Below, one piece after another: positions 11,235 through 49,200 of a DNA stretch of 64,000 bases. Positions within the stretch are counted from its first letter, which is position 1, and each line of letters starts with the position of its first letter. Origin of the DNA: Botryllus schlosseri (taxonomy: Eukaryota); assembly GCA_051294905.1 (NCBI GenBank), contig CM119371.1, forward strand, positions 40,984,001 to 41,048,000, in the 5' to 3' direction. The notes below the pieces were generated by a model, which saw nothing but the letters and a program-made list of their open reading frames with translations, did not search any database and was not told where the DNA came from. The position numbers and the translations under genes are program-made.

Positions 11235-11819
11235 ATTTTCTTCAATCGAAATTGATACCTTTCCATCGTTTATCTACGTTATGGTGCTACTATGCCCTTT
11301 TATCGTGATAAGTCGGTCGTTAATTAGTCCGAAATGGTTAAATGACATTTTTTGACTTGAGAATCGCCTTCGATGTTACTGCCGATACTCTTTATTCACG
11401 CTCCATCTAATTATTGTATTATTCATAAATTAATGAGCTATGCAATAACGTTCGTAATATTTCAAATTTATTATCAATGCGCGGCAAATACAATATATTC
11501 ATCCATTGATCTTTCGGTTGTGTCATCTCAGAATTGGCTAGGATTCTGAGCCAATTAACGTGCCTCATAGCCTTGGGGGTGGATACCCCTAGAATTGGGA
11601 AATCAGTGTAGGCTACATGTGCAAAGATGTCTGGACATTCTGTGGACCCCTGTCAGAGCTGTACAAAAATGACCGAGTTCAACCTCTACATCTGCCACGT
11701 GGGCACTGGTAGCAGCATATGGGCCCCTCGAAACTTTTCAGGCATCAACCCAATGAGATATAGGTGTGGCAGCTCCAGATGCTGGGAATTGCCTGGTATT
11801 GGGAATTTGGCCAATATGA

Positions 11820-13135
11820 ACAAACCCATACGCGCAGCTGAACGTTTAGGATCAACTTCAACATTTCTTGCAGCCGGAGATTCTTATCAAACTATCGGCG
11901 CATCATTTAGAATTCCTCCGCCAACCTTGGCATTGATAATGCTAGAAACCTGTTTGACTATGTCGGATATAAACTTGACCAGAATTTATGCCCGTTCCTG
12001 ACAGAGAAATGTGGAAGAAAAGAGCCGCCAAGTTTTGTGGTGTTTGCCGTTTCCAAATTGTATCTGCGCAATATATGGACAGCATATAACCATATGAGCA
12101 GTGAGCACCAGCTAGAAGCGGAAGCATGTTCGTTAACTACAAGAAATATTTCAGCACCATATTCTCATGGCAGTTGCTGATGCTGAGTTTTGGTATATTA
12201 CGGTGGATATCGGATTAAGTTTTGGAAGAGCTTCATATCGGGAAGTTTTATGTGAATGTGTCCGAGGAAAGAGGCTAATTGCTGGCACGTTGGACATTTC
12301 GCCGTCTGTTGAATTAAGTAATAATGGTCTTATTGTAATAGTTGGTGAAGAAGCTTTCCCGCGAAAGACAAAACTTGATGTGGTCGTATTCTGGGAGATC
12401 CCTTTCATTGGAACGAGTTTTGAGAGCTCGCCGAGTGGTGGAGAATTCATTCGGTATGATGAGCTCTAGGTTTAGAGTCCTGTACAGACATTTGTCATTG
12501 CAGCCTGACCACGACGATGGCATTATGAAAGCGTACACATTATTGTACAACTTTCTCCGTTACCGCAAAGATCCAGCTTAATATTCAGATGTTGAAGATC
12601 ACAACACATTTGGCCAAAACATGCTACGCCGTGTCGGCAGGCGTTCTGCCAGTGTTGTAAAAGAGTATCAAGTCAATCTCACTTTCATAGTTTTGACTCG
12701 AGTCATTTTCAATCAATCACCGAGTCCAAGTCAACGAGCAAAAGGTCGAGTATTAGTCCGAGTCATGGTATTATGACTCGAGTCCAAGTCATTGTGTTTA
12801 CTGCTCAGTTTCGAGTTGAAGTATTTTTATAACTCTGTTTCGTGATATCGAATGGTTGGCATTTATAATATACTAATTTTCCTCACTTTTAGTAGTAGTA
12901 TTTTCAAGTACCAGTACCAATAGACGAACGAAGCCATAGTGTGGTTACTTTACTATTCTTCTAAAATTCAATGAAATGTCGGTCTTGGCCGTCTAAGTCT
13001 TGCTCTGAATTCCAAGTCGAGTCAATACACAGATTGACTCGAGTCAAGTCCGTATTTTGAGAACATGACTCAAGTCGAGCCATTACAACCCTGCGTTCTG
13101 CCAATCCTGCCATTGAAGTTAGAGACACATTCGCA
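11820..13135 (+). pseudogene. PIF/Harbinger DDE transposase (HARBI1-like) pseudogene, copy 2
   Basis: Frameshifted segments AERL..FLAAGDSYQTI..FRI, EFMPVPDREMWKK, FPNCICAIYGQHI (DG>YG), SGSMFVNYKKYFS, LMAVADAE..VDIG, IVGEEAFP (GD>GE), RARRVVENSFG..SRFRVL, LYNFLR, and RRSA[MITE]NPAIEVRDTFA. Multiple frameshifts and stops; two catalytic Asp residues lost. Confidence 0.9.
12650..13093. mobile_element. hAT MITE family A inserted in the transposase 3' end
   Basis: CAGTGTTGTAA..TTACAACCCTG with 8-bp TSD CGTTCTGC (12642-12649 / 13094-13101). Confidence 0.88.
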
Positions 13136-13522: not shown

Positions 13523-15688
13523 TTAATCATTCAGCAGCAATTCGTGCATCGCATTAACGACCGTCCTTCTGAATTCCCATTTTTTCTGTGTCGACAATGA
13601 CTTCAGGGCAGCGCTAAAGCTCAGCAGGAACATCTCGTCAGGGTCTGCGTTCTTGGCGAGAATAGGTTCTGTCACATTGTTCATAGCACCGACAAGTTGG
13701 CTGATATCATCCTCGTCTGCAACCCTTTTCCGTTTTTTTGCTTTTCCGGGCAGCGTGAAGATAGGACTGTTATCTGTTGATTCTGAAAATTGCATCGCAT
13801 GTAATTTAGGCATCATCAAACATACCGGGACCGGTGCCCGTTTATTTTTTACCAACCATTTGATAAATGTGAAGTCAAGCTCTTTGAACCTTCTCCAGTC
13901 TTCTGCTGAAAATCAGCTGCAGTGCCACTATTGAGAACAGGAGTCAGAACTGTTTCTCCGCTGGCGTCGAAGAAACCTGAATCAGTGCTGCTGAACCGTG
14001 GTGTAGATTGACCTTCACCAACGTCAAAATTCGATGTGGATCTGAATGGAGCCATTTAGGTGTAACTGCAATGTCATGAATAGGCCGATTTTTTTGGCAT
14101 GTCAAAATCATAGTGTTAGGTCAAAAAATTGATGACAAAGTCGTATCGTAGAGATGTTTGCACTGTCGGTGAACTTATCATTTGACATTTTACAGCTTGT
14201 AGCCTAGCTTACTTTATAAGCCTACCGTTATAGACGGCCCATTACCTACTCATTGTGAATCATAAACGGTCAAATTAAACAAATAGGCTGACTGAAGTAA
14301 ATAAATAGGTTGACTGAAACAAATAGGCTAACTGAAGGAAGACTGCGTGGGCAGTGGCCATTGGTTCTTATATCAAGAAGCGCATGATAAAAAATTGTGG
14401 GGACAACATTATCAGAATCAGAATTATCAGTGTACGTACAACTTCAGTATCGCTAGCCAACAACTGCTGCCGTCTTGGCAAGCTACTTGTAAAGACACTT
14501 TCTACCCGAGAATGTAGGAGTGTATCTTTTGTTACTCTACAACAGATATTAAATATGCTACCATAATGCGCGATGTAACAATTGGAATTTTTCATAGGTC
14601 CACATAGGTCGGTTTTCAAGACAAAAAAGATTTTTCAGGCCAACCTACTTCGCAAGGACAGACAGCTCCTAATTTACATACACAAGCCCAAAATTTGGTC
14701 AAAATCTTCCCACTTTTAGGTCCTAGTTGTGAATATTCAAAGATTCACAGCTTACTTTCGACTTTTTGTAAATGGTTCCAGGAATGACATTGTCGACAGC
14801 AAAGCCCACGTAGGTCTTCCATTTCGCCTTGCTCCAGACTCTGCCTCGATTTCTTTCTTCCTCTCTCGCCTGTATTTGTCTCTCAGGTTCTCCCATTTCT
14901 TACGGCACCTTGTCACTAAAAATATATCATTCAATACACCACAAGACCGCGATACAATGACAAGATGGACTTGGAGTATAGTCTTCCGGAATCAGACACC
15001 CACCTGGCCTAGGCTACGTAAATAGGAGGCATGCACACTGAATGAAAAGTAAAAAAAGATAATATAAAAGGACAGGCGACAAAATCAGGTGGCATGTGTC
15101 GGAAGGCGAGATAGAAATTTCAGGTCTTGGGAGGGCTGAGGCTGACTAGTGGCAAGTAATAATTCAGTAGAAATTGTTGGTATTTCGACTTGAATGTGGT
15201 CTGTGGACATGCTCGACGACTATATGATAGATAAACTGCATTCCCGGCATATTTGATAGAGCGATAGCGATGGTCTTTTACGTCGACCATGCAGCATTCA
15301 TTTTTGTCGCTTGCTTTTATGCTATCCTTTTTCACCACTTTCATGATATCCTTTTTATCCAATGCATCTTAATTTACATGCTGTAGGCCAAGGTGGGTGT
15401 CTACTTCATTAAAAGTCGACTCAAGTCGTTTCGGCACCCGCCTATCTCTTCATTATATCGCAATCTTGTGATGTGTTGATTTGATGAAAATTTTATAAAA
15501 TGATGATCATGAACAGTATTGCAATTGCACTGACACATACTAATAAATGCCTTACCGGGGAAGCCCATTAACCATGAGACTTTTTTCCACGCGTTTTCTC
15601 TTATGGCTGCATTTGAATAGTTGAGGTCATTCCAATCATACAAACAACGGTATTGCTTAACAGCCAATACAAGACTCTCGTCGTCCAT
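13523..15688 (-). CDS. MADF-BESS DNA-binding protein, copy 2 (245 aa); Harbinger ORF2-like
   Basis: Exons 15688-15556, 14915-14756, 14041-13857, 13782-13523 (738 nt; same intron positions and phases as copy 1; GT-AG). [47 protein letters not shown]-like DPDEMFLLSFSAALKSLSTQKKWEFR. Confidence 0.85.
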
Positions 15689-15894
15689 TTCGCGCGCTCG
15701 AATGAATGTCACTGACTGACTGACATGTTTGATGATCCGCTAGATAGCGCAAAAACGACAGTCGCGGTCGCGTTGATTCATCAAGGGAGAGAGATACGAT
15801 ATTCTTTTTCGCATGCACCATCGAGATGCTTTGACGACGGAGTTGCGATACGGCCCTGAGTTCATCAAGTCTGCGTCCCCGTTTTTTTCTCCTC

Positions 15895-30300: not shown

Positions 30301-32652
30301 TATAACAACTTGAATATTACGATTACTTTGCCATAGCAATATAAATACTTGAAGAGTTTCTTGGTGGTACGGAACTCAAAGATACAATTTAATAATATAT
30401 TCATATTGAAATAAACCCGAATATTTTTGGCTGACACTCGTCAGGGGTAATCGTCAGCAACTAGTAGTACAATGTTCTTTCCAATTCTCTGCTAGTTGCT
30501 GACGATTACCCCTGACGAGTGTCAGCCGAAAATATTCGAGTTTATTTCAATATGAATATACTATTCAATAGCAATGGAAATGTCCAATCGCCCAAAAATC
30601 CATTGGTGTTTTACGGCTGTGAAGCCTATGCTACGACTACTTTCAACTCGCTACATTTAATTGTCGATGAGAACAGAGAAAAAGATACCCAAGTTCCAAG
30701 ATGACACAGGATTTACCTAACTATACATCAAGGGGCAACACAATTGCAATGGTTGCCATCCGACCTGTTAACGCAAAACAAGCTAATACCTTTTGATATA
30801 TTACTTATTCCCATACCAGTTTGAACGTTTGTTGCGTCCGTGGCTGTACCAAGTCACGGCGTTCCGAGTCACAATAAGTCATTCTCTGATTGTAACGTTT
30901 GACGCGACCCAACTAGAGTCGTTCTTATTTTATCAGTATCACACATTGAGCCCGAGTTCTAGTAATTCTACAAAAGGTCGCGTCCAAGTCCAAATACCAA
31001 TTTTCATTCACTAATCATCAACGCGTCATGTTTTACCATCATAAACAAGTAACGTGACGTAATAGTTGATCTTCCACTTTGTGGTAACTTTCGAAAGTGA
31101 TATGATAGTGAAGTTTGAGGAGCATTTTCAGGCTTCTGGAGTAGTTTTAGAGCGAATTTCCAGTTCTCAAATTCAAAAAAGATAATTGGCAGTTCAATAT
31201 TGTCGAATATTCGAAATCCAAAATGCCGTCGCGGGCCGCACAAAATGGTCTCGCGGGCCGCGTGTTTGAGACCTCTGAACTAGAACTACTCGCTTTTCAA
31301 ACCAATAAAACTAGTACTACTCACTAGAACTAGAACTTTGACTAGAACGACTTCTACACTAGAACTAGAACTACTCATAATACCAATCGTTAGTTGACCT
31401 CTCCGAGTTGATGATTTGGGAAATTCTAATACGTACCTTTTAGTGACAACAGAGAATTGAAAATGAATTTTGGACTATACACAGGGCAATAATTAATAGC
31501 TGGAGGAAAATCCCGCTGAGCGAGAAATCATCAATGGTTGAATAATCTGTCAGAAGTAATCATGTTCAATGGTACCACGTAGCACCAACATATTTTTGCG
31601 AATTTGGTGCCTAACGCCGTCTATTTCTTGAATTGGGCTTGGCTTCAGCATACCTGACCCGAAGCTAAATCAAAAACCAATGGCGCGGCCCCGTTCTAAG
31701 TCGTATAGTGTAAATACTCATTTCTAAGACGAAAAATGCATGATCTAATTAGGAAATATTATATTTCTCCAGGGTTGTAACCAAGTAACAAGTCAATCTC
31801 ACTTTTATAGTTTTGACTCGAGTCAAGTCGAGTCATTTTCAATTCACCACCGAGTCAAGTCCGAGTCAGCGAGCGGAGGGTCGAGTCCGAGTCATTGTGT
31901 CCACTGTTCAGTTTTGAGTTTAATCAGACTTGACCTACTTTATTCAACTCTGTTCGAGTATATAGAATGGCTCGCATTCATTATATCGTAATTTTCCTCA
32001 GTCCTCAGTTTCTGGCCCTATTTGCCAAGTATCTGGGCTGACTTGTAGTGACTTCACTATTCTTCGAAGTTACAAGAAAATGTCTGTCTTGGCCGTTCTA
32101 GTCTCGAGTCTATGACTTGGTTCGGGTGATGCCCAATGTCTCAAGTACAAGTCAAGTAAATACACAAATTGACTCGAGTCGCGTCATTTTACACATTTGA
32201 CAAAATGACTCAGTCAAGTCGAGTCACCAAAGATCGTGACTCCAGTCGAGTCATTACAACCCTGTATTTCTCCATAACATTGTGTCTTGCTACGCGATCT
32301 GCACAGATGCTTGACAGACAGACCACAAAAGCGTCGACTAACATCTATTCTACACTCATTCACCAATTACTCCTAATTCAGAGACATATTTTGATCGGTA
32401 CAAGGTCCGATATCAATCACAATCTAGCTCGGTGCATGGATGGTACGACGCAGCTTTGATATTTCGAATCGTAGTACAATTCGGATTAGTGCCGTTGTTG
32501 CACTAGAACGTTTCGTCTGTAATGCTAGCCGAAACGCTAATATATCGCTATTCAGGCATTCCGTGGACCTATTCCTGGACTTCATCAACCTGTTCCGTCG
32601 CATCATGATCCTGCTGGCCAGCAAAGACAACGAGAAGAAACGCAGGAATTAG
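21373..32652 (+). CDS. TMBIM6: Bax inhibitor-1 (238 aa)
   Basis: Exons 21373-21434, 22111-22219, 24432-24552, 27813-27959, 28627-28807, 32556-32652 (717 nt, phase-consistent). [104 protein letters not shown]. Confidence 0.97.
23505..23790. mobile_element. Penelope-like pLTR remnant (inverted pair) with a hammerhead-like motif on the minus strand
   Basis: The minus strand of 23570-23604 reads ACCC CTGACGA GTGTCAGCC GAAA ATAA TC GAGT. A degenerate inverted partner lies at about 23705-23760. Same family as 30350-30570. Confidence 0.6.
26168..27714. mobile_element. Nested MITE cluster: hAT (CAGGGGTCGCCAAC) > family C > second hAT copy 26586-27150 > another hAT end
   Basis: CAGGGGTCGCCAACTC at 26168 and 26586; GTTGGTGACCCCT ends at about 27150 and 27714. 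Family C arms at about 26370-26495 and 27440-27530 are inverted. The inner TSD is imperfect (TTGTGAAC/TTGTAAAT); the outer TSD is not evident. Confidence 0.7.
29591..30167. mobile_element. hAT MITE family A
   Basis: CAGGGTTGTAA..TTACAACCCTG; TSD GACATCAG (29583-29590 / 30168-30175). Confidence 0.92.
30498..30541 (+). ncRNA. Putative minimal type I hammerhead ribozyme motif in a Penelope-like inverted repeat (30396-30560)
   Basis: ACCC-CTGACGA(30512-30518)-GTGTCAGCC-GAAA(30528-30531)-ATAT-TC-GAGT: the conserved CUGAnGA/GAAA/UH core with a palindromic stem III. Stem I is ACCC/GGGT in the inverted sister copy and has one mismatch here. Confidence 0.6.
31770..32264. mobile_element. hAT MITE family A
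   Basis: TIRs as above; TSD TATTTCTC (31762-31769 / 32265-32272). Confidence 0.92.
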
Positions 32653-34628
32653 AAATCGCACGCAACTAAACTCGCCCAGAACTTTTAATTTCATGTTTTA
32701 TGTAACTTGTCAATATAGAGAGACAGATACAGTAGCTTAATGCAATCGTATGAGATTTCGATTAAAAAGGCATGTTCACCAAAGAAACCGCCTCATTTGA
32801 CTGTCCAATACGTAATAGTTTGCCTGCCTTACGCTAGTAGCTTAGCGACTCACTGATGTAATTGTGGTGTTTCTAATTCCTATGTCTGTCCCGTTGGAGT
32901 ATTTCAAGTCGATATATATTGAGAGAAATGCTTAGTACAGGAAAACCGCGTGGGACCGGTGTAGATTTGATGAAATGGATTAGGTAGGTCCTGTTATTTC
33001 CCTTTCGCAGTGAAATTGCGTAGTCAGACTTGTGTGATTGATTATTAGCCATTATTTACCCGATTTTTTCTGATTCATTTTAAATCGATCTCTGTTTCAA
33101 CCAATGTAAATCTGGTCTGCACAAATACATGCTAACGGGTGTGATGATTATTTCGTGCGTTATTCATGCACTTGGGGTAGGGATGGGATAGTAAACCGGT
33201 GTCCAAGTTAGTAGGCCTATGTTGGCGATCAATATCTGTCGTTGTAAAGTAAATCGTAACGTTTATAATAGTGGCTACTGGTCGGGAAAATGGCATGGAG
33301 ATACTAGGATTTTGCATCGGCATTGACAGGAAGCCGAGTTGTGTTGATAGTCTACTTTCGAGCGCTTAAAATCTCTTGGATTTGGATTGATACCCCGATT
33401 TGCACATTTAGGACAGTAACTGAAACATGTCAATCAGGGGAGGGCAGATTTTGCAGTCGACAGGCTTGATATGGGAAAATGAAGTGCTTGGCAGGTCGGA
33501 TTCCCGAATCGATGCATTAAACGCGGATTTATCCAGTCATCCACCTTTACAAGGAATCTTTCCTATGGAATTCCAAGTTTTAAGACATAGAGACCAAAAA
33601 TTATGTACTTCAATATAGCTGTTGAAGTCAATGAGTTAATTGCCTAATTTTATTTGAAATTTGTTTTATCCTGGATCATTATAAGTTTTAGGAACGTGCT
33701 TCGCGCGCGGTCCTTGAAATCGTCTTGCGTACCCCGGATTGAAAACCACTAATATAGAGCTAGCGGTCATCCCAACCCAACCCTCCCAGACTCCCAGCAC
33801 CTTGATCAATGATCCTCACGCATACGAACATAAGCCTCTTCTTCCGACAAGGTCTGTCGTAGGCCTGCTATTCATACATGGGGGACACGGCGAGCAGCAG
33901 GTTGGTCTACTCGTGTGCTTGTCAACTCCAAATCGTCAGCTACCTAATTTCGGGTGGTTCAGTCGTATATCGAGGTTGACAGACTGGAAGTTGATTATGA
34001 TCTGTACAAGAGTTATAGAAACGCGTCAGACAGTAACTGATTGTACGTACATGTACTGTAGCCTACATTAGCCTACGCCTACACGTTACACCTCACATGT
34101 GTAATTTGTTTATGCTCGACCAATGTGCGATCAGTGACGGTGATGTAGCTAATCTGAATTTGGCTGTCCGCGCCCTACACTGAGCAAGATTAGGCTGTCC
34201 AATCCAAGGCAACACAGAAACTGGATGAATGGTGAATCCACTGAGACGGGATGAATTGCTAGTAGATTAACTTACTTTCGACTGAAAACACAACAATCTA
34301 GCAAACTTTAAATTGAAGTAAAAACACTATAGAGATAAAAACAACTACTATGACTATATAGCCTATAGGCCTATATTATGTTGTACAAATAGGCGTATTT
34401 TAGATTCAAGAGCTTCGCATTTCATCTCGGCTGTTTAATTTAAAACAAGAAATTAGTTGCAAAACTTGAGAGACATGCAGCATGAATAATGGCTAGAGAC
34501 AATAATCTTCACCAGTTACTTGATGTTGGATATGGCTCATGGCCCGGGGATGTCTCATGTTCTACCTACATCAATAGCAATATATAACCGATGCTTCTTG
34601 TACATCATATACAAGCAGTTAGTTATAT

Positions 34629-35569
34629 TCAAACGAAGGTTTCTTGACTTTCGTCCAATGTGTCTAAACGCCAATTTGTTTCCTCCGCGATTGACTCTAG
34701 TCTGTTATCCACGGTAACTTCGCGGTTTGTTTCCACCAAATTCTGTTTAATAAATAGGAATATTTATGTGAGCCCTATCTTAAACAAGCAGCTTCTCATA
34801 CATACCGTCGCAACACGCTTCGATTTGCGAGTTGAATCAATTTTGCAGTTTATTGGCTCGCATTTTTCCATTAAGATGTACACTGCAATGAAAAGTACCA
34901 CGACCAGAAGAACATATGCCCTGAAAGACATTCGTAATCATCAGTGCTGCATACAGCCATTGCATAGACGCAGGTGGGTGTATTGCAAATATTCCAAGTC
35001 GTTTCGACACCTCCCTATCTTTTCATTGTATCGCAACTTGTGATGTACTGATTTGATGATTTTTTTATTAATAAACTAAACTGAACTGCTTATAGTAAAT
35101 AATAAATTAACACAGAAGCAGGGTGTAGAAGTAGATATCGGGAGATAACCTACTCCTGAAAGAGATATATAGGCCTACCGGACCAACTTTAACTACGTAG
35201 CCTACTTTATGAAGTGACATCTATATGATGGTGTAGCTGTAGGTGAAATTTCATAACGTGATTCGGTAATCTCAAAAGCAAACTATTAGGCCTGTTCATT
35301 TGTGATACACTGCCAAGTGTCAAGTGTGTCATGTCATGTTCACTAAACGTTTCGAAAATCTCCATTGTATTCGAAATTCTTGTAGGGCTATACATTGCTG
35401 TAGTAGCCTATACGCTTGCACTGTAGCCTTCATGTATAATAACGTGACTCCTAATGATGGATCAAGAAAAGTTCTTGTTCTCATACCCAATAATCATCTG
35501 AATTCCTGGAGGAAAGGCGGCCAATCCGTTGTATTTGATGACATGTCCGGCTTCTTCAGTTGTTGACAT
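34629..35569 (-). CDS. Uncharacterised 103-aa single-pass membrane protein with C-terminal class I PDZ-binding-like motif
   Basis: Exons 35569-35487, 34920-34806, 34742-34629 (83+115+114=312 nt). Donors GTATGA and GTATGT; acceptors TCTTTCAG and TTAAACAG. Protein MSTTEEAGHVIKYNGLAAFPPGIQMIIGAYVLLVVVLFIAVYILMEKCEPINCKIDSTRKSKRVATNLVETNREVTVDNRLESIAEETNWRLDTLDESQETFV*. Confidence 0.72.
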
Positions 35570-36774
35570 AGTCCCGAAAATTGTATACTATAATACTAGC
35601 TACTATCTGTTATATTAGGAGAATAGCCTTCCATTCTGACTTAATGATCGTCTGATAATTACTATAACTCTCTATGACAAAGCTGGATCACCCCTGTTTT
35701 TAAAATACGATCGTAAGACACGAAAGAATTTCCTACAGTATAACCAAAATTACAACTGATTCCGCAAAGGAATGTGTTGAACACGGCCAAGATATCAGCC
35801 ACCCCGCTCTATTCTCAGCTCGGTGGATGACTCCGAGATTCTTGTCTGAAATACAGCCGGGAGATGAATGCTTGCAACTGTCTCTAATACTCACTACCCA
35901 GCTATCTGTGCGATTTCATGGATTTAAATCATTGTACTGTATTCGCGATAAGATAAGTTATCTTGCCGCAGTCGCGACGTGACGAGGCTACTGTGATGTC
36001 TTTAGGTTTCGATTTCCAGTTACGGCGTCAAATGATAGTGGCATTCTATTATATCTGTGCACAAGAACAAACAATAATAGTAAAGACGATACAAAACATA
36101 GTGAATCGGGACTTATTGTGGTTGTCTCTTTCGTATCATAAGGGAGCTCTTGATATGGATGGTTGCCCGACGTTTGATCATGCGACATAATGAAAACAAC
36201 GTCTTCAGTTGACGGGCTGACGATGCATATGCCTTCAAGACTACTGGATCACGACCTAGCATATCGATCTCACCTTCCGCCACATGCCACTTTATTTTGC
36301 CGCTTGCCTTTTATATTTTCAGTTTACTTTTCATTCGGCGTGCTTGCCTCTTTTTTACATCGCCTATATTCGGAAACTAGAAAATTTTCAGCTTTTCCAA
36401 ATCAGATTAGAATTAGAATTATAGCTACATAGTTTTTTTCGAAATTAGACTAAAATTAGAACTATATACCCACAGAATTTTTTTTTGGCAAATTGGATTA
36501 GAATTACTGAATTTGCGAATTGGACATTGAATGGAATTTATATTCTCATAAGGACGAGAATAATAAATGACTGTACTATAGCGTATGGCACATTTCGCAC
36601 TATACAGTTTGAATAGCATTTTCAAGAAACCAGTAATTACGTTAGACTTAAGGGGACTAGCAACCCAAAAAAAAAAACAATTTTCGACTTTTTTTTTCTG
36701 GTAGGAAATATTACCATTGTAAATGGTAAAATAAAATCTGCTGTCACATGACAGCTATATGACAGCTATGTGAC

Positions 36775-37027
36775 AGTTATCGGACGAAACATGCGATCTT
36801 TTAGTTGGAACTTGGAAAAAAACACCCCCCCCCAATTTTCAAAGGAAAATAAACTTGAAATTTAGCAGTTTTTAGTAATTGTTTGGGTGAGATAAGGCCA
36901 TGAGGTGCGCACCTTATCTCACCCAAACAATTACTAAAAACTCCTAAATTTCAATTTTATTTTCCTTTGAAAATTGGGGGGGGGGTTCAAGTTCCAACTA
37001 AAAGATCGCATGTTTCGTCCGATAACT
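36775..37027. repeat. Near-perfect ~120-bp-arm palindrome
   Basis: AGTTATCGGACGAAACATGCGATCTTTTAGTTGGAACTTG..GGGTGAGATAAGG is mirrored by CCTTATCTCACCC..CAAGTTCCAACTAAAAGATCGCATGTTTCGTCCGATAACT, with a ~14-nt centre. Confidence 0.92.
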
Positions 37028-37338
37028 CATTAAAATATATGGTTTGACCGTTATAAAATACATATATATTATCTCCGGGTACAATTTTGTTAGATTGTTG
37101 TCAGTTGTTATTCCAGCATTCTGGCACTCATTCTTATCATTAGATCGGTAACGCTTGTTCATTGACTTTTTACGGTTCAAATGTTTGATAGTCGTTTTCT
37201 CAATTATAAAATTGTGTTAGATCGCATCACGGTAAACCAAAAATTTGTATGAAATATTTGTCGTAAACGTGTCACTCAAGGTTTTTTGAAAAGCTACAAT
37301 TCAGACCTGTGCTATGCTAAAAGTTCTTAGCCATAGGT

Positions 37339-38845
37339 CAGGGGTTCTCAACCCGCGGCCCGCAGACGATTATTTTGCGGCCCGCGACATCTTTCGTTAT
37401 AAACACAATTATTGCTGACACGGTAGTCTATTGTAGCAAATTAATTTAGATACTTGGCTCCGTCCCTGTTTCGTTTGATTACTAATTTTTGAATGCAGTG
37501 GTTCTCAAACTGGGAGGCGCGTCCCTTAGGAGCGTGAAAGCATCTGAAAGGGGTGCGACGCTGCGGTCAACTGAAAAAAATTTTCGCGCTGCGCGCAATT
37601 TGTCTTCAGTTCATAGTTATTTCTCTGTGTATAGTCCGAATTTCATATTTGAGAATTCTCTCATCAACATCAGTCACAAACCTTCCATGCCATCAAACTA
37701 GCCGTTTGTAGCATTCTGGTTGCATTTTGTAATATGACGATAAGGGGGCACGAAATTATTCTCTTTTAAAAAAGGGGGTGTGTCTGAAAAAGTTTGAGAA
37801 CCACTGCTTTAATGTACTCTCGTTTCTTGATATATGCTCGACTTCAGATTGTTATTGTTTTGAATCGGTATTCTGCTGGACTCTGGTTCAAGGAAATCCC
37901 GCTACGTAGTTGGTCTGCAATTTCAAAGAGTGTTTGACTCACTGCGAACGGTTGTTGAGATTGCCGACGACGTTACAGACGCATCGTTCAAAATTACTTG
38001 GAATATCGCTAAATCCTAGAAATCTGCTACAGAAGGTGCGATTTCAATAAGACCTTAACATACTGTGCGAAAATTTGCTGTTTCAGGAACTTAGCAGCAT
38101 GACAAATTTCGAAGATACAGTCGTCTGATTCAATCGTGTCAAGACGAGTTACGTCAATGTCAGTCGGTCGCATGTTCTGAAACACGTTGCCGCGTATAGC
38201 CTGCTTTAACCCAACCTCGGACAAATCCACCGACATTGCATAACTAATTATCAGAGTGGACAATATGCGGAGGAAATGCTGGCTGGGCAAACGTGGTGAG
38301 GGGACCAGCGAAAAATATCAACTTGACAAAGCTAACTCTGTAACTGTTGATGTAGGGTCCCAGGCATGAAAGGAATGGAGAATGGTTGATTGGTTTGCTC
38401 AAAAATGGTCCCGAACGCCAGAGTTCCTCTCATATCACTCATAGCTCAATGTGATAATGGCCTCTGTAACGCCAAATTTACTGTAATTTTATAATTGCTC
38501 ACTCAAGCATTGAAACAGCGAGTTCGGTTCTCTGGTGGAAGGGTTTTGAGTTGCAGATACCGACTTGGCAATGAATGCAATGCACGCTCCATGAAGGGAT
38601 TTAATTGCGCCGCTAGAAGATACATATTCTTACAATAAGCAGCAGCTGCAAACTTAAGAACGCTGTCCATTGATGCTTTATAATGCATAAAAATGTACTA
38701 AATGCCCGTATACGAGTGGTAAATAGGCTACAGTAGCCTAAATTTAATTGTAGCCCACAAATACACGGTAATATTGTTATGCGGCCCGCAGCGTCTTTTG
38801 CTGTTAAAATGCGGCCCGTTACACAGGAGAAATTGAGAACCCCTG
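37339..38845 (+). mobile_element. Internally deleted Buster/Charlie-type hAT element
   Basis: CAGGGGTTCTCAA..TTGAGAACCCCTG with perfect TSD CCATAGGT (37331-37338 / 38846-38853). Internal remnant at 37954-38162, VTDASFKITWNIAKS*KSATEG..ISKIQSSDSIVSRRVTSMS, resembles Buster/GTF2IRD2-type transposases. Confidence 0.82.
37496..37806. mobile_element. hAT MITE nested in the Buster-type element
   Basis: CAGTGGTTCTCAAACT..AGTTTGAGAACCACTG; imperfect TSD TTTGAATG/CTTTAATG. Confidence 0.8.
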
Positions 38846-40727
38846 CCATAGGTCAACCATGTCAAGAGGTACAGAACGTCACAGTAAACTTACAGCAAAT
38901 GTATGACAAAAATTATGATTTTTTTGAATTTTTGAATTTCGAAATGAAATTTCTCCGAGATGGGTTGTACATAACCCTTGAAATTTTAGCATAGCACAAC
39001 GCTGTCCTAGTACTTCCTAAAGAAGGCGTTAGATCGGAAAAAATGGCTTCACAATATCGAGATTATGCATTCCCCGTGTCGGTGCATTTTCTGTCCTTGA
39101 AATCCAAAAAAATCCACAATCTGCAGGGTCGAACGAAAAATTTTGATTTTTTGTTTATAGCATAGCGACATCTAGCGACTGTGAAAATTTCGTGGTGATG
39201 GGGGTAGCCATCCGAAATTTAGGTTTTTGGGATACTAGTCCCCTTAAAATCAGAGCACATAAAAGCATATTTCACTAATTAAATTCGAAGATGACCGGCA
39301 TTGCGCACTAATTAATCCAAGTCTGTTCGGCACCATCGCAACAATCGTCGAAGCAGATTTCAGCCGACATGTGTTAGTCGTGGTCATTTTCGGCCAAGGC
39401 TTATAGGGTCGAACCGGATTTTGAAAATTGCTAGTTTTAGTTCTAGTTGCGCAGTAAAAAAAATAGGTGACGAACAACCACCTCTAAACTGTGCGCTTGC
39501 ACGGTCGCGCTCTGCTTTTAAAGTCGCCGCGCACGGAAAAACGTGTGCCACGCACAAGAATGCCGAAGTGATGACTTTTTTTTAGTTGTTGCGCTGTTTT
39601 CCAAGGGACGGCGCCGTGAGTTGGTGAGTGCGTACAGACTCGCGAAAAAGTAGAGGGAACATTGCTGACAACTAGAAAACACGTGTCGTCGTTTGGTCAT
39701 CCTCAGTCAAGTTCAAGTTCAAGTTTATTCATACAATTTCATGAACTTCAAGGTCACCTGACCATGATTTGACCGACCACACCTATCAACAAATGCCTCA
39801 TTTATTTTCATCGCTAGTCATTTAATGTTATCCTTTATTTCTTGCCGGATTTCAATACTGCTCCAAGTCGTATCGGAACCCTCTTATCTTTTCGATATAT
39901 CGCAATCTTATGGTGCTTTGATCTGATGCAAATTTCAATAAAAAGATTGATTGATTAGCGCGAATCGTGATGCCGGTGTTCTGTTGTGTGATGTTCTTGC
40001 AGAAGTGAGTTTTCTGGGTCAAAACCCCTGCCATTACATGTTCGTTCATGTTCAGTTCATGTGAAAAGCCGATCCGATAAGTGGGTTGCGACTTGCGATT
40101 GCAAATATATAAAGGTTTGACAGACAGACAGATTCTTTATTATTTTATGCAATGCGAGTTGACACAAAGACGACTCCAAGTCGTTTCGACACCTTGCTAT
40201 CTTTTCATTGTATCGCAGTCTTGTGGTGTTTTGAAATGATGAAATGAAATTATTAATCTAAGAAAGAACTGAACAAATATTTAAAAAAGATACGACCACA
40301 ATGTGGTCTTCGAGCCAGCTGTAGTCATGGATGAATGATGGACCATCAATAATATCATATTACTGTCAGTAGTCGCGAGCTGTTCTAATTCTGAGCATTT
40401 TGGAAACCAAGTAGTTGCACAGCACAGGTATGAGCTAAGTTTTACAAGACGTGCTTTCGTAGTAGTACCAAAATTCTGTAGCGACACGCGCCAGCGATCA
40501 TCAACAGTGCAACCTTGATGCAGGTATTTTCACTTTCACACAAACGCAATGTGAGATCTTCGAAGAATTCAGCAAATCTTTTATCGTGGTTCATATTTGT
40601 ACCACGAGAAACAGCAGAACCCTGCTTATGTTGGCAATGGTGAGTGATTGTTGTTGAGTGCGGATGAATACATTGCTAGTCACGAGTTCAGAGTTCTCTC
40701 TACGTCTAGCTAGCAAACAACAAACTC

Positions 40728-40737
40728 ATGACGTCAT
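40728..40737. promoter_or_regulatory. Palindromic CRE/ATF site in the probable Rab5 promoter region
   Basis: ATGACGTCAT at the start of the long repeat-poor stretch preceding the Rab5 coding exons. No transcript evidence. Confidence 0.3.
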
Positions 40738-43700
40738 CGACTAGGAGGTGATCAGCTGAAGTCGATAAAGTATTTGGTGGCGTGATGCGAGTCGTAGAAT
40801 GGGTGATAGGAATGTTATTTTTTGTCGCGTATCCACCAAGTTGAAACGTTGCCTTTGTTCACTCCGCTGTAATTTTAGCCCAGCATCTCAGCTCCGATTG
40901 ATTCTCGTTTATTTCGTACTCAGCAGTTGTTCGTAACGGGAATGCACGATTGAAATTGGATATCAAGTTCGAGATGATATTCGCTTTTGCACTGGCTACA
41001 AGCATATTGCGACGGAGATCTTGTCATTATATTTTGTTTTACAAGCTGCTAGATCAAGATTGATGATTCATGAGTCTTGTTGAAGCTTTGACTCTTTGTT
41101 ATGTAACTTCGAGTTTCGATTGTGAATGGTTAATACAAAGTACCGTATCTTCGAATTTAAAATATGGATCAATGATGTAGTTTGGATAGAGTAGGATCGG
41201 GGTCTAATCATAATATCAAGACTCTACTAATCTACTGTAACTTCCAGTTTTATCTACTCATGAATAGGATTCATGTTATCATATGTCATACCTTGTATAT
41301 AGATGTTCCTGCTTAGTTAATGCCAAGCTGTTGTCTTTCGTACAATGATCAGAGCTTGAACATATCACCTTGTGAGAAAGAATTGCTGCAATCTACTGCT
41401 TGAGACCATTTGACTCAGCCTAGCCAGACAGGAGATGATTAGTTAATTTGACATTCTTCAAATTCGATTGAATAATATAGTGTGAAGAAACCCAAATATT
41501 TTTGTGAAGGGTAGTCGTCAGAAACTAGTTTAGAATTGGAAAGAACATTGTATATCAGCAATTGCATCAACCAATATAATAGGCTTACTGGCATGAAATT
41601 TCGAATAATCATGGCAGTCAGATACACAGTGATAGATATACGGTACAATGGTTTTTCTTTCTATTCACTACTATATATACTTGCTGAAGGTTGTCAACCA
41701 AAATATTCCTTGTGGTTTATTTCAATATCAATATATATTATTCAACTGTATATTGAATTTCTGTACATAGGCTACAAGGCTGACTAGATGATTGAAAAAA
41801 GTTGTCGGGGCTTGTTCGCTCTGTTACTATGAGTCATACTTCTGTCCAATGTGTTGATTTTTACTGTCAATTGCGCTGTGGTAGAGCTGGAATGGCTTGA
41901 TTTTGCGATATACCGGCCTCACTGGTACCATTTCAGTGGAAAATTGAATGATGTTTGCATATTAAAATAGCCCATATTTTTGGACTACACTCAAACTCAT
42001 TTCAATATGAATATACTATTCAATTGTATATTGAAGTTCTGTACCTCCAAGAAACTCTTCTTATATAGGCCTAATATTCAATTGTCTGGAAGTCGTCTTT
42101 CTCGCCAAGATATATGAGCAGTCTCAGGGTTAGATATTTCATCTCACTGCCAAGTTTGCTCTGAGCCATAGGGATTCTTAACATGAAGCTCAATATTTGT
42201 GGAAAAGATACCAAATTCCAACCTGGTACTGCATGCTTACCTGTGACCACAAATTATCCAGAATTCCTCGATTGCCATTTGTAGCAATAAGTTGTCATGC
42301 AGGGTGTTTTCAGTAACTAACACTCATGGATGCTGGCCAGTCTTTTTGCGAATACCTGGACCTTTTTTTTGTAACTGCTGAACGTATCTGTTATTCGGGA
42401 CATTGTTTCATTATGGTACCTGTAAATTGTCAGTGACTTATCGTTATTTAAATAGAGCTGACTTTACTTGTGTGAATATGATATGTTGGATATTATACCA
42501 GACAATTGGAGAGTTGGTTGTTATTTTGGTAGTTCCACCAAGCTGCACAATTGCGAGCCTTGTCTTCTAATGTAATTGTGCCACTTCGAAGCAGTTCATA
42601 GACCAAAATATACTGTTTTTAAGGATGAGTTCCAAGTCTTTGTGTAAATCTGTAGTCTTTGTTCAAATGTTAACATCGTAACTAAGTCTTGACCCAATCT
42701 AAGTTTTGGACTGACAAATAAGCGTTAGCTGCTGATCAAACAATAAATTTCTCTTTGAAAAAATGATGAAAACTGCTCGGACATAGATATCGTCTGTATA
42801 ATGAGCATTGTAAATATTGATGTGTTTTGAATTCTATTTTTGAAGCCAGAATTAAAATTTCTGTGTAGCGCTCATCGCTACTGATGTAGTTTGAAATGTG
42901 GTTTGATTGATCAATGTAATTAAAAGTTCTTTTTCATTCACAAAATTGTTGTGTGACTCTGGCTAGCTTCGGGTTTTAATATATATATTTACGTAATGAA
43001 TATATTGTATATTTAGGTCTCCTCTGCTATAAGGCATTGCCTCTTGTATTGCCGAAATATTGAGCATTGTTTCACAGAACTGAAAGTGTACCAGCATCGA
43101 TCACGGTAGTGTGGAGTAGTGTATTTTTAGTTGCTGGTAATCGAGGATGTACCATTTCACATACATGTTTAATAACACTCCTATTCCTTTGCTTTCAAGC
43201 CTTTACAACTTCCTGCCGTGTAGATTCCAGAATGATATCATAAATTCCAACGTAACACTTCGAGTTTGCCGTAGATTTCATTATTTGACTCTTCGTTTGT
43301 GTTTGTTTCCTGGTACCTTGTATATTATAGATAACCGTATCAATCAGGTTGACGTCAGACTGTCGTCAGTGTTCATTAGGTCAGTTCAGTGTCTGCGTGC
43401 ACTTACTAGCTATGTGTGAGACTGTGTTTATTCAGGCAGCAATAATTGTTCTAAAAGTTTATCTCATCAATAGTGACTTGCTTGATTTTAAAGATGACTT
43501 ATGCACAAAATGTAATCTTCTGTGCTACCAGAGTATAGATGTGATTCAGTTGATTGCATAATGTGTCTCCTGGTGTAATAGTCATAGATATAGGTGACTT
43601 GATCATGATATAATGTTATATGTTTCATTAAATGGTTTAGAAACCTTTCTGAGTCATTGCTAAGTTCTTTCATTGACCAATTTTGGTGATTCCTGGCGTT

Positions 43701-44394
43701 TTTATTGTGATGTTTTAGTACTGGACTCTTTGTTAGTAGTCCCTATGTAGAAGTTTTTATCGATTTAACAGGTAGTGCTGTTTAAAAATGGAGAATTTTC
43801 GTCGATCAGTAGTTGAGAAAGTGTGTCAGTTGTTAGTGACAGAATTTGAATGGTCGGTTGGTGTCGTATTTTGCAAAACACTGTCAGTGACCTTTATTAG
43901 AGTATGCTTTCGATTAGTGATAGGGTAGTTGTAGGAATTAAGTGTATTTGAAGGGTAGATCTAATTCGAGCCTTGACCATCGTAGCATCGGACACATTTA
44001 CTATATATACTCCAGGTAATAGCATCTTAATGTATATTTTGGCATGTAATACATATACTGTTCCAGTTGATTAGCTGCCACTCCATGCATTGCATAGTGC
44101 TTTATGCAAACACCGTGGCTTTGATGCAGTCATTAAATATGCAGTGTGAATCCATCTTTCTGGCATGAACTAGCATTAAATCCTAATGTCACACGACTAT
44201 TTTTGGAGTGTACTACTGTAGATATATTGTGTGAATACTGCAAGTGTTTAGAACACTATTTTTAGGTGTTGAAAATTCAATTTTTAAGTATCAATTTTTA
44301 TCATTGCTCCTTCAAATTGATTATTGCTACTGTGCGGCAGAGCGAGCCCGCTCTAAAACAGTTCGTTCTTTTCAGAATATACATTTTTGTAGGT

Positions 44395-44536
44395 ATGTTA
44401 ACTAGACGCACACCACAGGGACAGCTTTCTCGATGTAAATTAGTGACACTGGGGGAATCGGCAGTTGGAAAAAGTAGTTTGATAGTAAGATTTGTGCAAG
44501 GACAATTCAATGATTATTTAGCACCGACCATAGGAG
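44395..44536 (+). CDS. RAB5: Duplicated alternative first coding exon of Rab5 (exon 1a)
   Basis: ATG 44395, [47 protein letters not shown]+G, donor GTGGGA at the same phase-1 position as the canonical exon. Acceptor TTTTCAG|AATAT (exon from 44376) parallels TTTCTAG|AATAT (46173). Confidence 0.75.
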
Positions 44537-44827
44537 GTGGGATGTTTTCAATTTATATACTTTCTTGATAATATCATTTCAATAGTAATGCATGTTCAAT
44601 TGTTCATAAGAGTTGTAGCCAGACTTCACTTGGTCAGTAGTAACGAATGGCACAGCCGCTTTATGGCACACTTGATTGTGTATTAGACTGTGATTTGCTT
44701 TAATGGACTATAGTATGCCAGCTGTGTAGATTTATATATTTGAAGATGCTCGCAGCACGAGCAGTGTGGCAAAAAAGTATTTTTCTATACTGCAACTAGA
44801 ATCCCATATGACTCTTTTCTGCTTTAA

Positions 44828-46219: not shown

Positions 46220-49200
46220 ATGTCTACCAGAAACACACCGCAGCGACCAAACGGCCCGGGCGCGCCAGGGAAGATCTGTCAATTTAAATTAGTATTACTC
46301 GGAGAATCGGCGGTGGGGAAAAGTAGTTTGGTATTGAGATTTGTTAAAGGACAGTTTCACGAGTATCAAGAATCAACTATAGGAGGTGAGAGAATTTTTT
46401 TATTTATATGTACGATTTGTGTCATTATTATCATACCACTATAATACCTATATCATTCCAATGGGTGTTCATGAAGTATTTTGATTACTTGCACGTAACA
46501 CGCATTTTTGTTATGTCAACTTCATCGTAAACAAGTGCATCTTGTATGTTGGAGCAGTAGTATGTGGTATATCCCAATTTTAGAATTTTTGCTCGCTCAA
46601 TCGTGAATACCAAACTGTCGTTCCGCAAATGGAGTTTTCAGCCAAGTTTAGCTCTGCCTATAACCATGATTTGTTTCTGGAAGAGTAGCAACACCAAATT
46701 CTGTCTTTTATGCCCAGTTCGTGTCACAGATACATGATTAATGACATAATACTATCCTCGCACCCTATGTCTGTTTATATATTCATGTTTTCCATCTAAA
46801 TATTGTAATTTAAAAATGATTTCGGTTTTGAGTGTTTCTGTCCTAGCCAGAAAAGTGAAAGCCCTATGTGCAATTGATAATTCATGACTATCAAGTGCGC
46901 CTGCTACCAATCTGTGTTTCACATCTGATCCACAGTTGCTGCATAAAGTCTGTCAGCCTGGTGATTCATTTAAAGTACCGGTACCTGGAACTCAGGAGCT
47001 ATATACATTGATTCATTTTGATAAGCATGCCTGCCTCCGTCATTTCGACACTGATCTCACACTCATGATTTGGTATATTTTTACATTATAGTTAGCTAGC
47101 TAGTAGCTACTTATAGGTTATGTCACAATCATTGTAACCTCTTGTGACAGAGTGTCACAATAATGAATGTTGTAAGCTTGTATTCTACAGCTTGAAGCAT
47201 GAATTTGAGTTTATTAGATATAGCTGATAAGTCTAGCAAAAATGACTATCATAGGGCCCGCCTGAAGACCTCTTGTGGAAAATTTGCTATTTAGTTCTGA
47301 TACACCATCTAATATGACCATTGATCATGAACAAAATACATGTTTAAAACTAGCGTGTCCAAAATGCGATGTATTCCAAAGGCTGTTATGTTCATAATTT
47401 TGTAGCTGTGATATACAATCGTCGCATGTAATATCATGACTGTCCTTGGAATTTGGCTGGCTAGTCAAACTTATCACATCCCAAAGTCGCTGATGCTAGC
47501 AATTTTCCACTGTTTACTTGCTAGGAAACCAGCCAGTGATGCCATTCTTTGCATAGCTCCTGTGTCATAAATCCATGTTTGACTGTTTCATTGTGCTGCT
47601 AAAGATATTCCCTTCAATAGAAGCAGCTAGGCCTTATTACTGAAGTCAGTTTAATTATAGTGCAATGGCTCTCCACGTATTTACTTCTGCAATGTATTGA
47701 TCCTGCCTGATTGCAGTATGAAGATTCTTGATTGATGTAATATTCATCATCGTGTGTCCCTATGTCAATTAATTCTCATGGGTACAATTTTATGAAATTG
47801 TTGGTTTTGACAAGAACTTTAGGTACCGCAGTATTGCAGAACATCATTTTAATTTGAATATTTAGTTTGAAGCTATAACTTTTGGTTTTTGTCACTTCCC
47901 ACAAAATCCTTGTTTGTCCTATTTGTAAGATAGTCTTTATAGTGGTAAGCCGACGGCTAGGGCTCTTCAAAAGTAACTTTTTCTGTCAAATTTCACTGGC
48001 TGACTTGACGATTGTCAGGGTGCCTAAAAAACGGCGCACAACAATCTTCGCTCAATTCCAACCTATAGAAGCATTGCTATATAAGGAACAAGTTATAGAT
48101 ATATTTAATAGAAATACCTAAAAATATTTTCGGATTTCACTGGCTACACTATGAAATTGTTAGGTTGTCTGAAAAAATGATGCTCAACAAATTTGGCTCG
48201 ATTCCAACCAGTAGACGTGAAGTTATTGAGGTACAGGATTTTTGGTTTGAAAAAAAAACAGTATTTACGGTGGCAAACTCTTCATCATTTATTATGAATT
48301 TACCCACCTTAAATACTATGATTTAAAATCCTAAGTTTCTGGCATTTGACAATATTGTTGATATTGACAATGTTTGGTTTGGCTTATCAGCAGATCAGGG
48401 CTGTGCGTTTAATATGTATTTTGTAGTTTCATCAGCCAACTTGGATCGTGCTGATTGATTTTTATTACCCGTATGGGCCATATGTTTTGTTGATGTCTGT
48501 GCTCGAAGGAATGAATGTTAACAATATCAAAACTCCATAATCCATTTGCTTATTATGCGCTGATACTGTTCCAGCATAAGATTATATGTTTCACTCAAAA
48601 AATTCCTGCTCCTGATAAAGGTAGCTTGTCAAAATCGACCTGTGCTTTTTAGAGTTTTGAGAACATTTTATAAGCCAAGTTCTATACTAGTGCTACTAAA
48701 CGAGAGAGGTATTCGTAGAGTGCATAATGTAGAACTCTCACACAAAGAAATCCCCCATAATATGACTCCGTTCACACTTCCTTAAACACTCATTATATTG
48801 GATAAGAGATGATTGTATGGATATGAAGAGGCTAAGCAATATGAGGCAATCCCTAATGCTATTGACTGTCCCTTCATAATGTCGATTGCCCGACAGATTT
48901 GTACAGTAGCCTGTCTAATAGGCCTGTAGCTTAAATCATGGACTGGTTCATCCATACATCCTGTCTAGTATCGTATGTAGAAAACAAAATTACAGTCACC
49001 AGGCTACTCATCTATTTTTAATCAGCCCATCTTTTAATCAATTGTAGATGCCAAGTTTCTTCGATTACAGACTGTGTGTTTATGGTGAAACGCTGCCACT
49101 GCCATGTTTTGATAGTGTCATCGAAATTGTTGAGAAAAAGCGGTCACTCGTGGCTTGTTTGAAAGCAGACATCTCTGTCGCCGTGAATAGCGCATACTTA

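Follow-up and report, generated by a model that had tools for sequence, protein, structure and literature searches.

Small proteins of the KCNE, SMAGP/glycophorin C and cortexin kinds, which expose their N-terminus to the outside, are near 100 residues long, carry no signal peptide, cross the membrane with one helix and often finish in a PDZ-type end. In MAP17 (PDZK1IP1), a single helix binds SGLT2 and the last four residues bind PDZK1 (PMC10803289, PMC5896160). The transmembrane adaptors LAT, NTAL and PAG/Cbp are described as having a short outer part, one helix and juxtamembrane cysteines, followed by a long tail with several tyrosine motifs, and the C-terminus of PAG, VTRL, is likewise a PDZ ligand (PMC4861716). 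Class I PDZ ligands follow the C-terminal consensus S/T-X-hydrophobic, as in GluN2, which ends E-S-D-V (PMC4564177). Myomixer, another single-pass microprotein that is hard to detect by homology, was reportedly not found in tunicates (10.1101/2021.07.24.453587).

Here we describe a gene of the ascidian Botryllus schlosseri located in a stretch of 64,000 nucleotides (contig CM119371.1, positions 40,984,001 to 41,048,000), hereafter the window. Invisible to the listing of open reading frames, it was readable from the raw sequence and then confirmed by RNA. This spliced, thinly covered gene would encode a 103-residue single-helix protein whose short N-terminus is predicted to lie outside, a new candidate among the poorly catalogued small single-pass proteins of the sister group of vertebrates. 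MAP17, together with SMIM24/MARDI, is the closest functional model: these proteins are likewise small, with a helix followed by a cysteine and a four-residue C-terminal PDZ ligand. However, MAP17 is described as ending in STPM and as having a potential signal peptide, whereas our protein ends in ETFV and has no hydrophobic stretch before residue 23. It differs from the KCNE, SMAGP/glycophorin C and cortexin proteins in that none of its 103 residues forms part of an N-glycosylation sequon. The likeness to the LAT/PAG-type adaptors stops at the tail, which here counts 58 residues and no tyrosine, the only tyrosines being at positions 13, 30 and 42; it therefore offers no SH2 docking, and the suggestion that the protein is an adaptor fails in the transmembrane adaptor (TRAP) sense, there being no tyrosine after residue 42. 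The Myomixer motif AxLyCxL, as given in the source cited above, is also absent, the two cysteines being flanked by K/E and N/K.

Gene model and transcription

The gene lies on the minus strand, and its three coding exons, joined in phase, give 103 codons and a TGA, with a product ending in ETFV. Coding exon 1 (35569-35487, 83 nt) holds codons 1-28 and is followed by intron 1 (34921-35486, 566 nt, GT..AG), inside which lies a repeat copy at 34990-35071. Exon 2 (34920-34806, 115 nt) holds codons 28-66, including most of the hydrophobic helix (to 34869), Cys48 (34862-34860), Cys53 (34847-34845) and the basic patch RKSKR (34829-34815). Intron 2 (34743-34805, 63 nt, GT..AG) is in frame and contains a TAA, which is why the gene is missing from lists of open reading frames. 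The coding part of exon 3 (34742-34629, 114 nt with the TGA) holds codons 67-103, with ETFV at 34643-34632. The three-exon minus-strand model put forward in an earlier note, with its two in-phase introns (566 and 63 nt, both GT-AG), assembled exactly as claimed. Among donors 35480-35494 combined with acceptors 34912-34929 for intron 1, no pair tried other than the one first proposed gave GT-AG. The start codon (ATG, 35569-35567) has an A at -3, and 21 nt 5' of it lies a TAG in the same frame (35590-35588), again in agreement with the note. This TAG falls inside the covered exon 1 (35487-35606, including a 37-nt 5' UTR at 35606-35570), so a longer N-terminus is ruled out for the covered isoform. 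The 3' UTR (34275-34628) is polymorphic and extends at least to 34275 in a contig of run X2, which reads through an ATTAAA at 34439-34434. We consider the gene very probably real.

Transcription was assessed on sequencing runs, four of the 24 listed, one per study, being aligned to positions 32400-44600. In the run search no listed run was recorded as RNA, seven contig runs contained 0.05-0.07 of the words, and the RNA status of X2 and X6, which come from two studies, was a guess ('RNA?'). Run X2 yielded a contig of 723 nt (depth 21.1) that aligned to 34742-34275 from contig letter 239, and the remaining 238 letters correspond to exon 2 (115) plus about 123 letters of exon 1. The X6 contig, 453 nt long and at depth 9.92, aligned to 34469-34742 and left 182 letters, 115 plus 67. 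The contig pieces of both runs ended at 34742. In X2 and X6 alike, a variant at 34871, with depths matching those of the contigs, was separated by 50 letters from the end of a piece, which places this end at the 34920 acceptor. Depth arithmetic over the bin 34435-34841 gave 304 covered letters in X6, for an expected 310 less a 6-nt UTR deletion if spliced and 373 if unspliced, and 338 in X2, for an expected 344 if spliced and 407 if unspliced. Cover of the exon 1 bin was 121 letters in X2 and 66 in X6, in agreement with the leftover record lengths.

From the piece ends and the depth arithmetic, the X2 and X6 contigs follow the exons and skip both introns, and for this reason both runs are likely RNA. 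The donor of intron 1 was placed by these lengths and by its GT. Spliced transcripts had been named as the check on this gene: intron skipping is supported by the contig arithmetic in two studies, and neither joint of the gene is among the 15 joints listed out of 156, all of which come from repeats. Raw reads of an RNA run from a third study (X14, about 13% read) gave a thin signal, six reads at 34871 and two at 34672, so that the three exons are seen to be transcribed and spliced in contigs from two studies, with thin raw reads in a third. Another raw-read RNA run (X12, about 6% read) gave no reads in the bin 34435-34841, though the BI-1 end was covered. The libraries gave no strand signal, and it was the splice sites that gave the strand.

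In X2 the contig started within about 3 nt of an acceptor-like AG at 35608-35607. This AG may serve trans-splicing, which has been described in B. schlosseri (PMC3691228), or exon 1 may come after an unseen non-coding exon. A separate 267-nt contig of X6 (depth 5.4, 19 other letters) was located at 35730-35984, roughly 120 nt 5' of exon 1. It had no evident donor at its end and is possibly an outron or a more upstream portion of this gene's transcript.

Search for relatives

All homology queries were single-exon pieces of 27-57 residues, the helix being split between two exons. In a collection of 5.8 billion sequences, the exon 2 piece gave eight candidates among proteins of 78-2000 residues, none of them at E up to 10, and the exon 3 piece gave five candidates among proteins of 71-2000 residues and no match. 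Exon 2 had no match at E up to 0.001 among 1.84 billion representatives, and its frame was confirmed in none of the 599 metagenome and none of the 47 viral contig pattern matches. No paralogue was found in the window. The literature search returned no description of such an ascidian gene, which supplementary gene catalogues may nevertheless list. The earlier statement that no family can be assigned thus stands for sequence searches, within the reach of exon-wise queries of 27-57 residues. The product is predicted to be a small single-pass membrane protein without an assigned family, and its combination of one helix, two cysteines, a basic patch and a PDZ-type end is a frequent one.

The foremost alternative is that the protein belongs to a known small family (MAP17/SMIM24, KCNE, SMAGP/glycophorin C, cortexin or another SMIM) and has diverged rapidly, a rather unlikely reading which is compatible with our preferred one. 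Queries of this length are too short for a sensitive search in 1.8-5.8 billion sequences, and the host's own BI-1 is likewise absent from the collection, with a best match of 85%. However, no exon queried separately reached the Pfam cut-off, the best being FrpC (E 0.046, 13.8 of 25 bits), and none of the Pfam models of KCNE, SMAGP/glycophorin C, cortexin or other SMIM appeared at E up to 10 with separate exons. Exons 1, 2 and 3, each queried separately, gave no Pfam or PDB match to MAP17 or SMIM24. In the PDB sequences as a whole, exons 1 and 2 had no match at E up to 10, despite the deposited SGLT2-MAP17 structures, and one chance match pointed to PHAX (E 0.16). The ESM Atlas, searched with exon 2, gave no usable match, which again speaks against a diverged relative, although Myomixer provides a precedent for a microprotein escaping BLAST (10.1101/2021.07.24.453587).

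Architecture, orientation and possible role of the protein

Residues 23-45, which span the exon 1/2 junction, are uncharged, and their best 19-residue Kyte-Doolittle mean is 3.03. No other segment of the 103 residues is comparably hydrophobic, which leaves a single helix of 23 residues, assembled across the junction as the note had proposed. Its description of the remainder was equally accurate: Cys48 and Cys53, RKSKR at residues 59-63 (14-18 residues from the helix), an acidic tail (10 acidic and 3 basic residues in 66-103) and the terminal ETFV are all present. The helix contains no small-xxx-small dimer motif, and an amphipathic tail helix is poorly marked, the hydrophobic moment reaching at most 0.46 in windows starting at 66-93. 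An internal repeat in the tail was rejected, 367 of 2,000 shuffles scoring equally high. Single-sequence AlphaFold2 modelled exon 2 as a helix over its residues 2-18 followed by coil at a pLDDT of about 52, and exon 3 alone as one helix with a mean pLDDT of 88.7. With a tiny outer domain, no tyrosine in the tail and no catalytic part, the protein has only two evident working surfaces, the helix and its final residues.

Uncleaved signal anchors are 19-27 residues long and cleaved signals 7-15 (PMC2139883). With its start at residue 23, its length of 23 and the apparent absence of a signal peptide, the segment 23-45 corresponds to the definition of an uncleaved single anchor and fits it better than a cleaved signal. 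Long hydrophobic anchors favour an N-out orientation (PMC2139883, PMC13220792). Charges gave a mixed picture. The cytosolic side of human single-pass helices carries on average +1.3, +2.0 and +2.2 within 5, 10 and 15 residues (PMC13220792). Here the net charge over the same distances was -1, 0 and +1 on the C side and 0, 0 and +1.5 on the N side (His counted as half). The difference, C minus N, was thus -1, 0 and -0.5, and it became +3.5 at 20 residues, the only distance at which RKSKR tips the balance to the C side. Counting lysines and arginines within 15 residues gave one on the N side versus four on the C side. The K+R count and the helix length lean toward the positive-inside, N-out arrangement claimed earlier, whereas the net charge up to 15 residues from the helix does not favour it, nor does an N-glycosylation sequon mark the N-terminus as being outside. 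Given a long and very hydrophobic helix, an N-terminus of only 22 residues and basic residues mostly on the C side, we predict an N-out/C-in topology, which seems to us fairly probable.

The opposite orientation would make of the protein a type II precursor, with the N-terminus in the cytosol, a Cys48-Cys53 disulfide loop outside, a KR cleavage freeing a 40-residue acidic, helix-prone peptide, and ETFV present by chance. The charge difference of 0 to -1 at 5-15 residues agrees with it, as does the cysteine pair, five apart and just past the helix. The dibasic KR at 62-63 is of the kind that forms the convertase cleavage consensus, but a K and not an R stands four residues before the cut, so that the furin consensus is missed. 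The confident helix of exon 3 counts weakly in favour of such a peptide, since for short peptides a single-sequence prediction frequently falls back on a helix. Among human uncleaved single-pass anchors, N-in proteins with a long tail (477) outnumber N-out ones (304), but N-in anchors carry a mean of about +2 before the helix (PMC13220792), versus no K or R at all in the 10 residues before ours. The strict E-T-x-V ending, moreover, is rare by chance. Altogether we regard this C-out precursor as unlikely.

If the protein is N-out, ETFV becomes a candidate cytosolic class I PDZ ligand. T-F-V stands directly before the TGA and matches the sequence definition of this class, as had been pointed out. 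Endings of the form E-[ST]-x-V occur in 2 of the 5,672 stop-terminated genomic segments of the window, one of the two being this gene, while x-[ST]-x-V ends 55 and the looser x-[ST]-x-[VIL] 282 of them (5%), figures to be read with the motif having been picked post hoc.

Returning to the N-out reading, the translated protein would probably be inserted as an uncleaved signal anchor, N-terminus out and C-terminus in. Its cytosolic ETFV may then bind a class I PDZ domain, with Cys48 and Cys53 possibly palmitoylated, a step that we hold as plausible though short of probable. More speculatively, and with rather low confidence, the helix might make the protein an accessory subunit by binding a polytopic channel or transporter, in the manner of MAP17 on SGLT2, though it is no MAP17 itself. 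By analogy with MAP17, we tentatively propose that the microprotein could be an N-out membrane partner tethered to PDZ scaffold proteins through ETFV. Such an accessory role, if true, would parallel MAP17 or KCNE in a lineage-specific way and imply an ascidian channel or transporter regulated in this way. A bolder and somewhat doubtful possibility is an ascidian-specific, possibly de novo microprotein under selection, which would be either an independent MAP17/KCNE-like PDZ-linking subunit or, in the opposite orientation, a precursor cut at KR to free a signalling peptide of 40 residues, as yet undescribed. The surprise is modest, the architecture being a common one.

Coding potential, allelic variation and genomic surroundings

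The coding potential was evaluated on the 703-nt spliced model and on 10,000 dinucleotide shuffles of it. The 103-residue frame is the longest of the six sense ATG frames of at least 15 residues, and no upstream ATG is present in the 37-nt 5' UTR. A frame of at least 103 residues appeared in 39 shuffles; it was combined with a hydropathy of at least 2.0 in five, and with 3.0 in none. Frames of at least 60 residues with a hydropathy of at least 3.0 were likewise absent from all 10,000 shuffles, and none of the 690 genomic stop-to-stop segments of at least 40 residues reached 3.0. GC content by codon position was 0.50/0.35/0.45, versus 0.32-0.38 in introns and UTR, which is coding-like. We strongly infer that the frame is translated, since the mRNA contains no longer one, no ATG comes before it and it lies well outside chance expectation.

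Alleles were compared between the contigs and the reference letters. Nine differences were listed in 160 nt of UTR versus two in 229 nt of exons 2 and 3 (p=0.009, with 474 further table rows outside the list); this contrast weakened to p=0.12 when restricted to sites equally distant from contig ends, and to p=0.78 supposing that exon 3 contains all four of the X6 differences outside the list. Both listed coding differences, M45V and W90L, are non-synonymous. The X6 piece is free of indels from 34742 through the stop, leaving the frame intact, and all nine of its gap letters are in the UTR. X2 showed a 1-nt (+1) offset, located only to between 34672 and 34621. It may fall in the last 14 codons, which would cost this allele its ETFV, or else among the first seven bases of the UTR. 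The allele data favour coding, but weakly.

These data bear on whether the gene could be young or weakly constrained, that is, a transcribed and possibly translated membrane peptide with no fixed function. The exon-wise searches without homologue, the low depth, the two non-synonymous alleles and the possible X2 frameshift would all suit such a gene. Its clean three-exon structure and a helix assembled in phase from two exons would not, nor would the X6 frame kept intact while the UTR carries indels, with fewer listed differences in the coding sequence than in the UTR; we consider a young gene improbable. A non-coding transcript with a chance open reading frame is very improbable in view of the shuffles and of the absence of any Rfam match within the gene. 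The same absence rules out a snoRNA host or structured RNA, all ten Rfam matches in 33000-37000 being below threshold and located on an inverted repeat at 36828-36990.

On the plus strand, the gene is flanked by BI-1 (Pfam Bax1-I) and by a Rab gene (Pfam Ras), called Rab5 in the earlier note, a name that fits its sequence. The gene is convergent with the former and divergent from the latter, as stated in the earlier note and right by strand, the first Rab exon being more than 8 kb away. This adjacency carried no functional information that could be shown. No overlap with BI-1 was seen, cover on the BI-1 side being about 1 in the bin 33621-34027 and the microprotein contig ending at 34275. The BI-1 exon was 85% identical to an unnamed protein, 73% to BI-1 of Styela clava and 61% to BI-1 of Clavelina lepadiformis (four matches from 22 candidates). 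On this one exon the host would be an ascidian, probably close to Styela. None of the matches is near enough to be its own BI-1; its proteome is therefore probably missing from the collection, and the absence of the microprotein there carries no message about annotation. The first coding exon of the Rab gene occurs in two plus-strand copies, 44416-44558 and 46266-46409, with 74% nucleotide identity, and the upstream copy has changed residues after the P-loop. Low-depth X2 contigs (2.5-4.3) on 43960-44231 and 44259-44537 stop at the donor of this upstream copy, which does not imply splicing.

Upstream of the gene, a minus-strand stop-to-stop frame of 86 codons at 35988-36248 has a short hydrophobic run, no Pfam match and no RNA support seen; it is probably due to chance. 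Next to it, a degenerate stretch at 36250-36366 is 72-79% like 15010-15129 and 7636-7740, which adjoin MADF exons, and is probably the relic of a mobile element. The window contains two minus-strand pairs of MADF and BESS genes (Pfam), 7754-8263 with 6034-6483 and 15401-15739 with 13523-13912. They flank a decayed plus-strand stretch at 11612-12469 which has no Pfam match and which resembles a Harbinger-type transposase. A near-perfect inverted repeat of 253 nt at 36775-37027 is MITE-like and gave only sub-threshold Rfam matches to miRNA hairpins. Finally, copies of a dispersed repeat, each about 80 nt long and very deeply covered by reads, were found at 34990-35071, in intron 1, and at 39861-39947, 40165-40245, 10426-10508 and 15412-15504.
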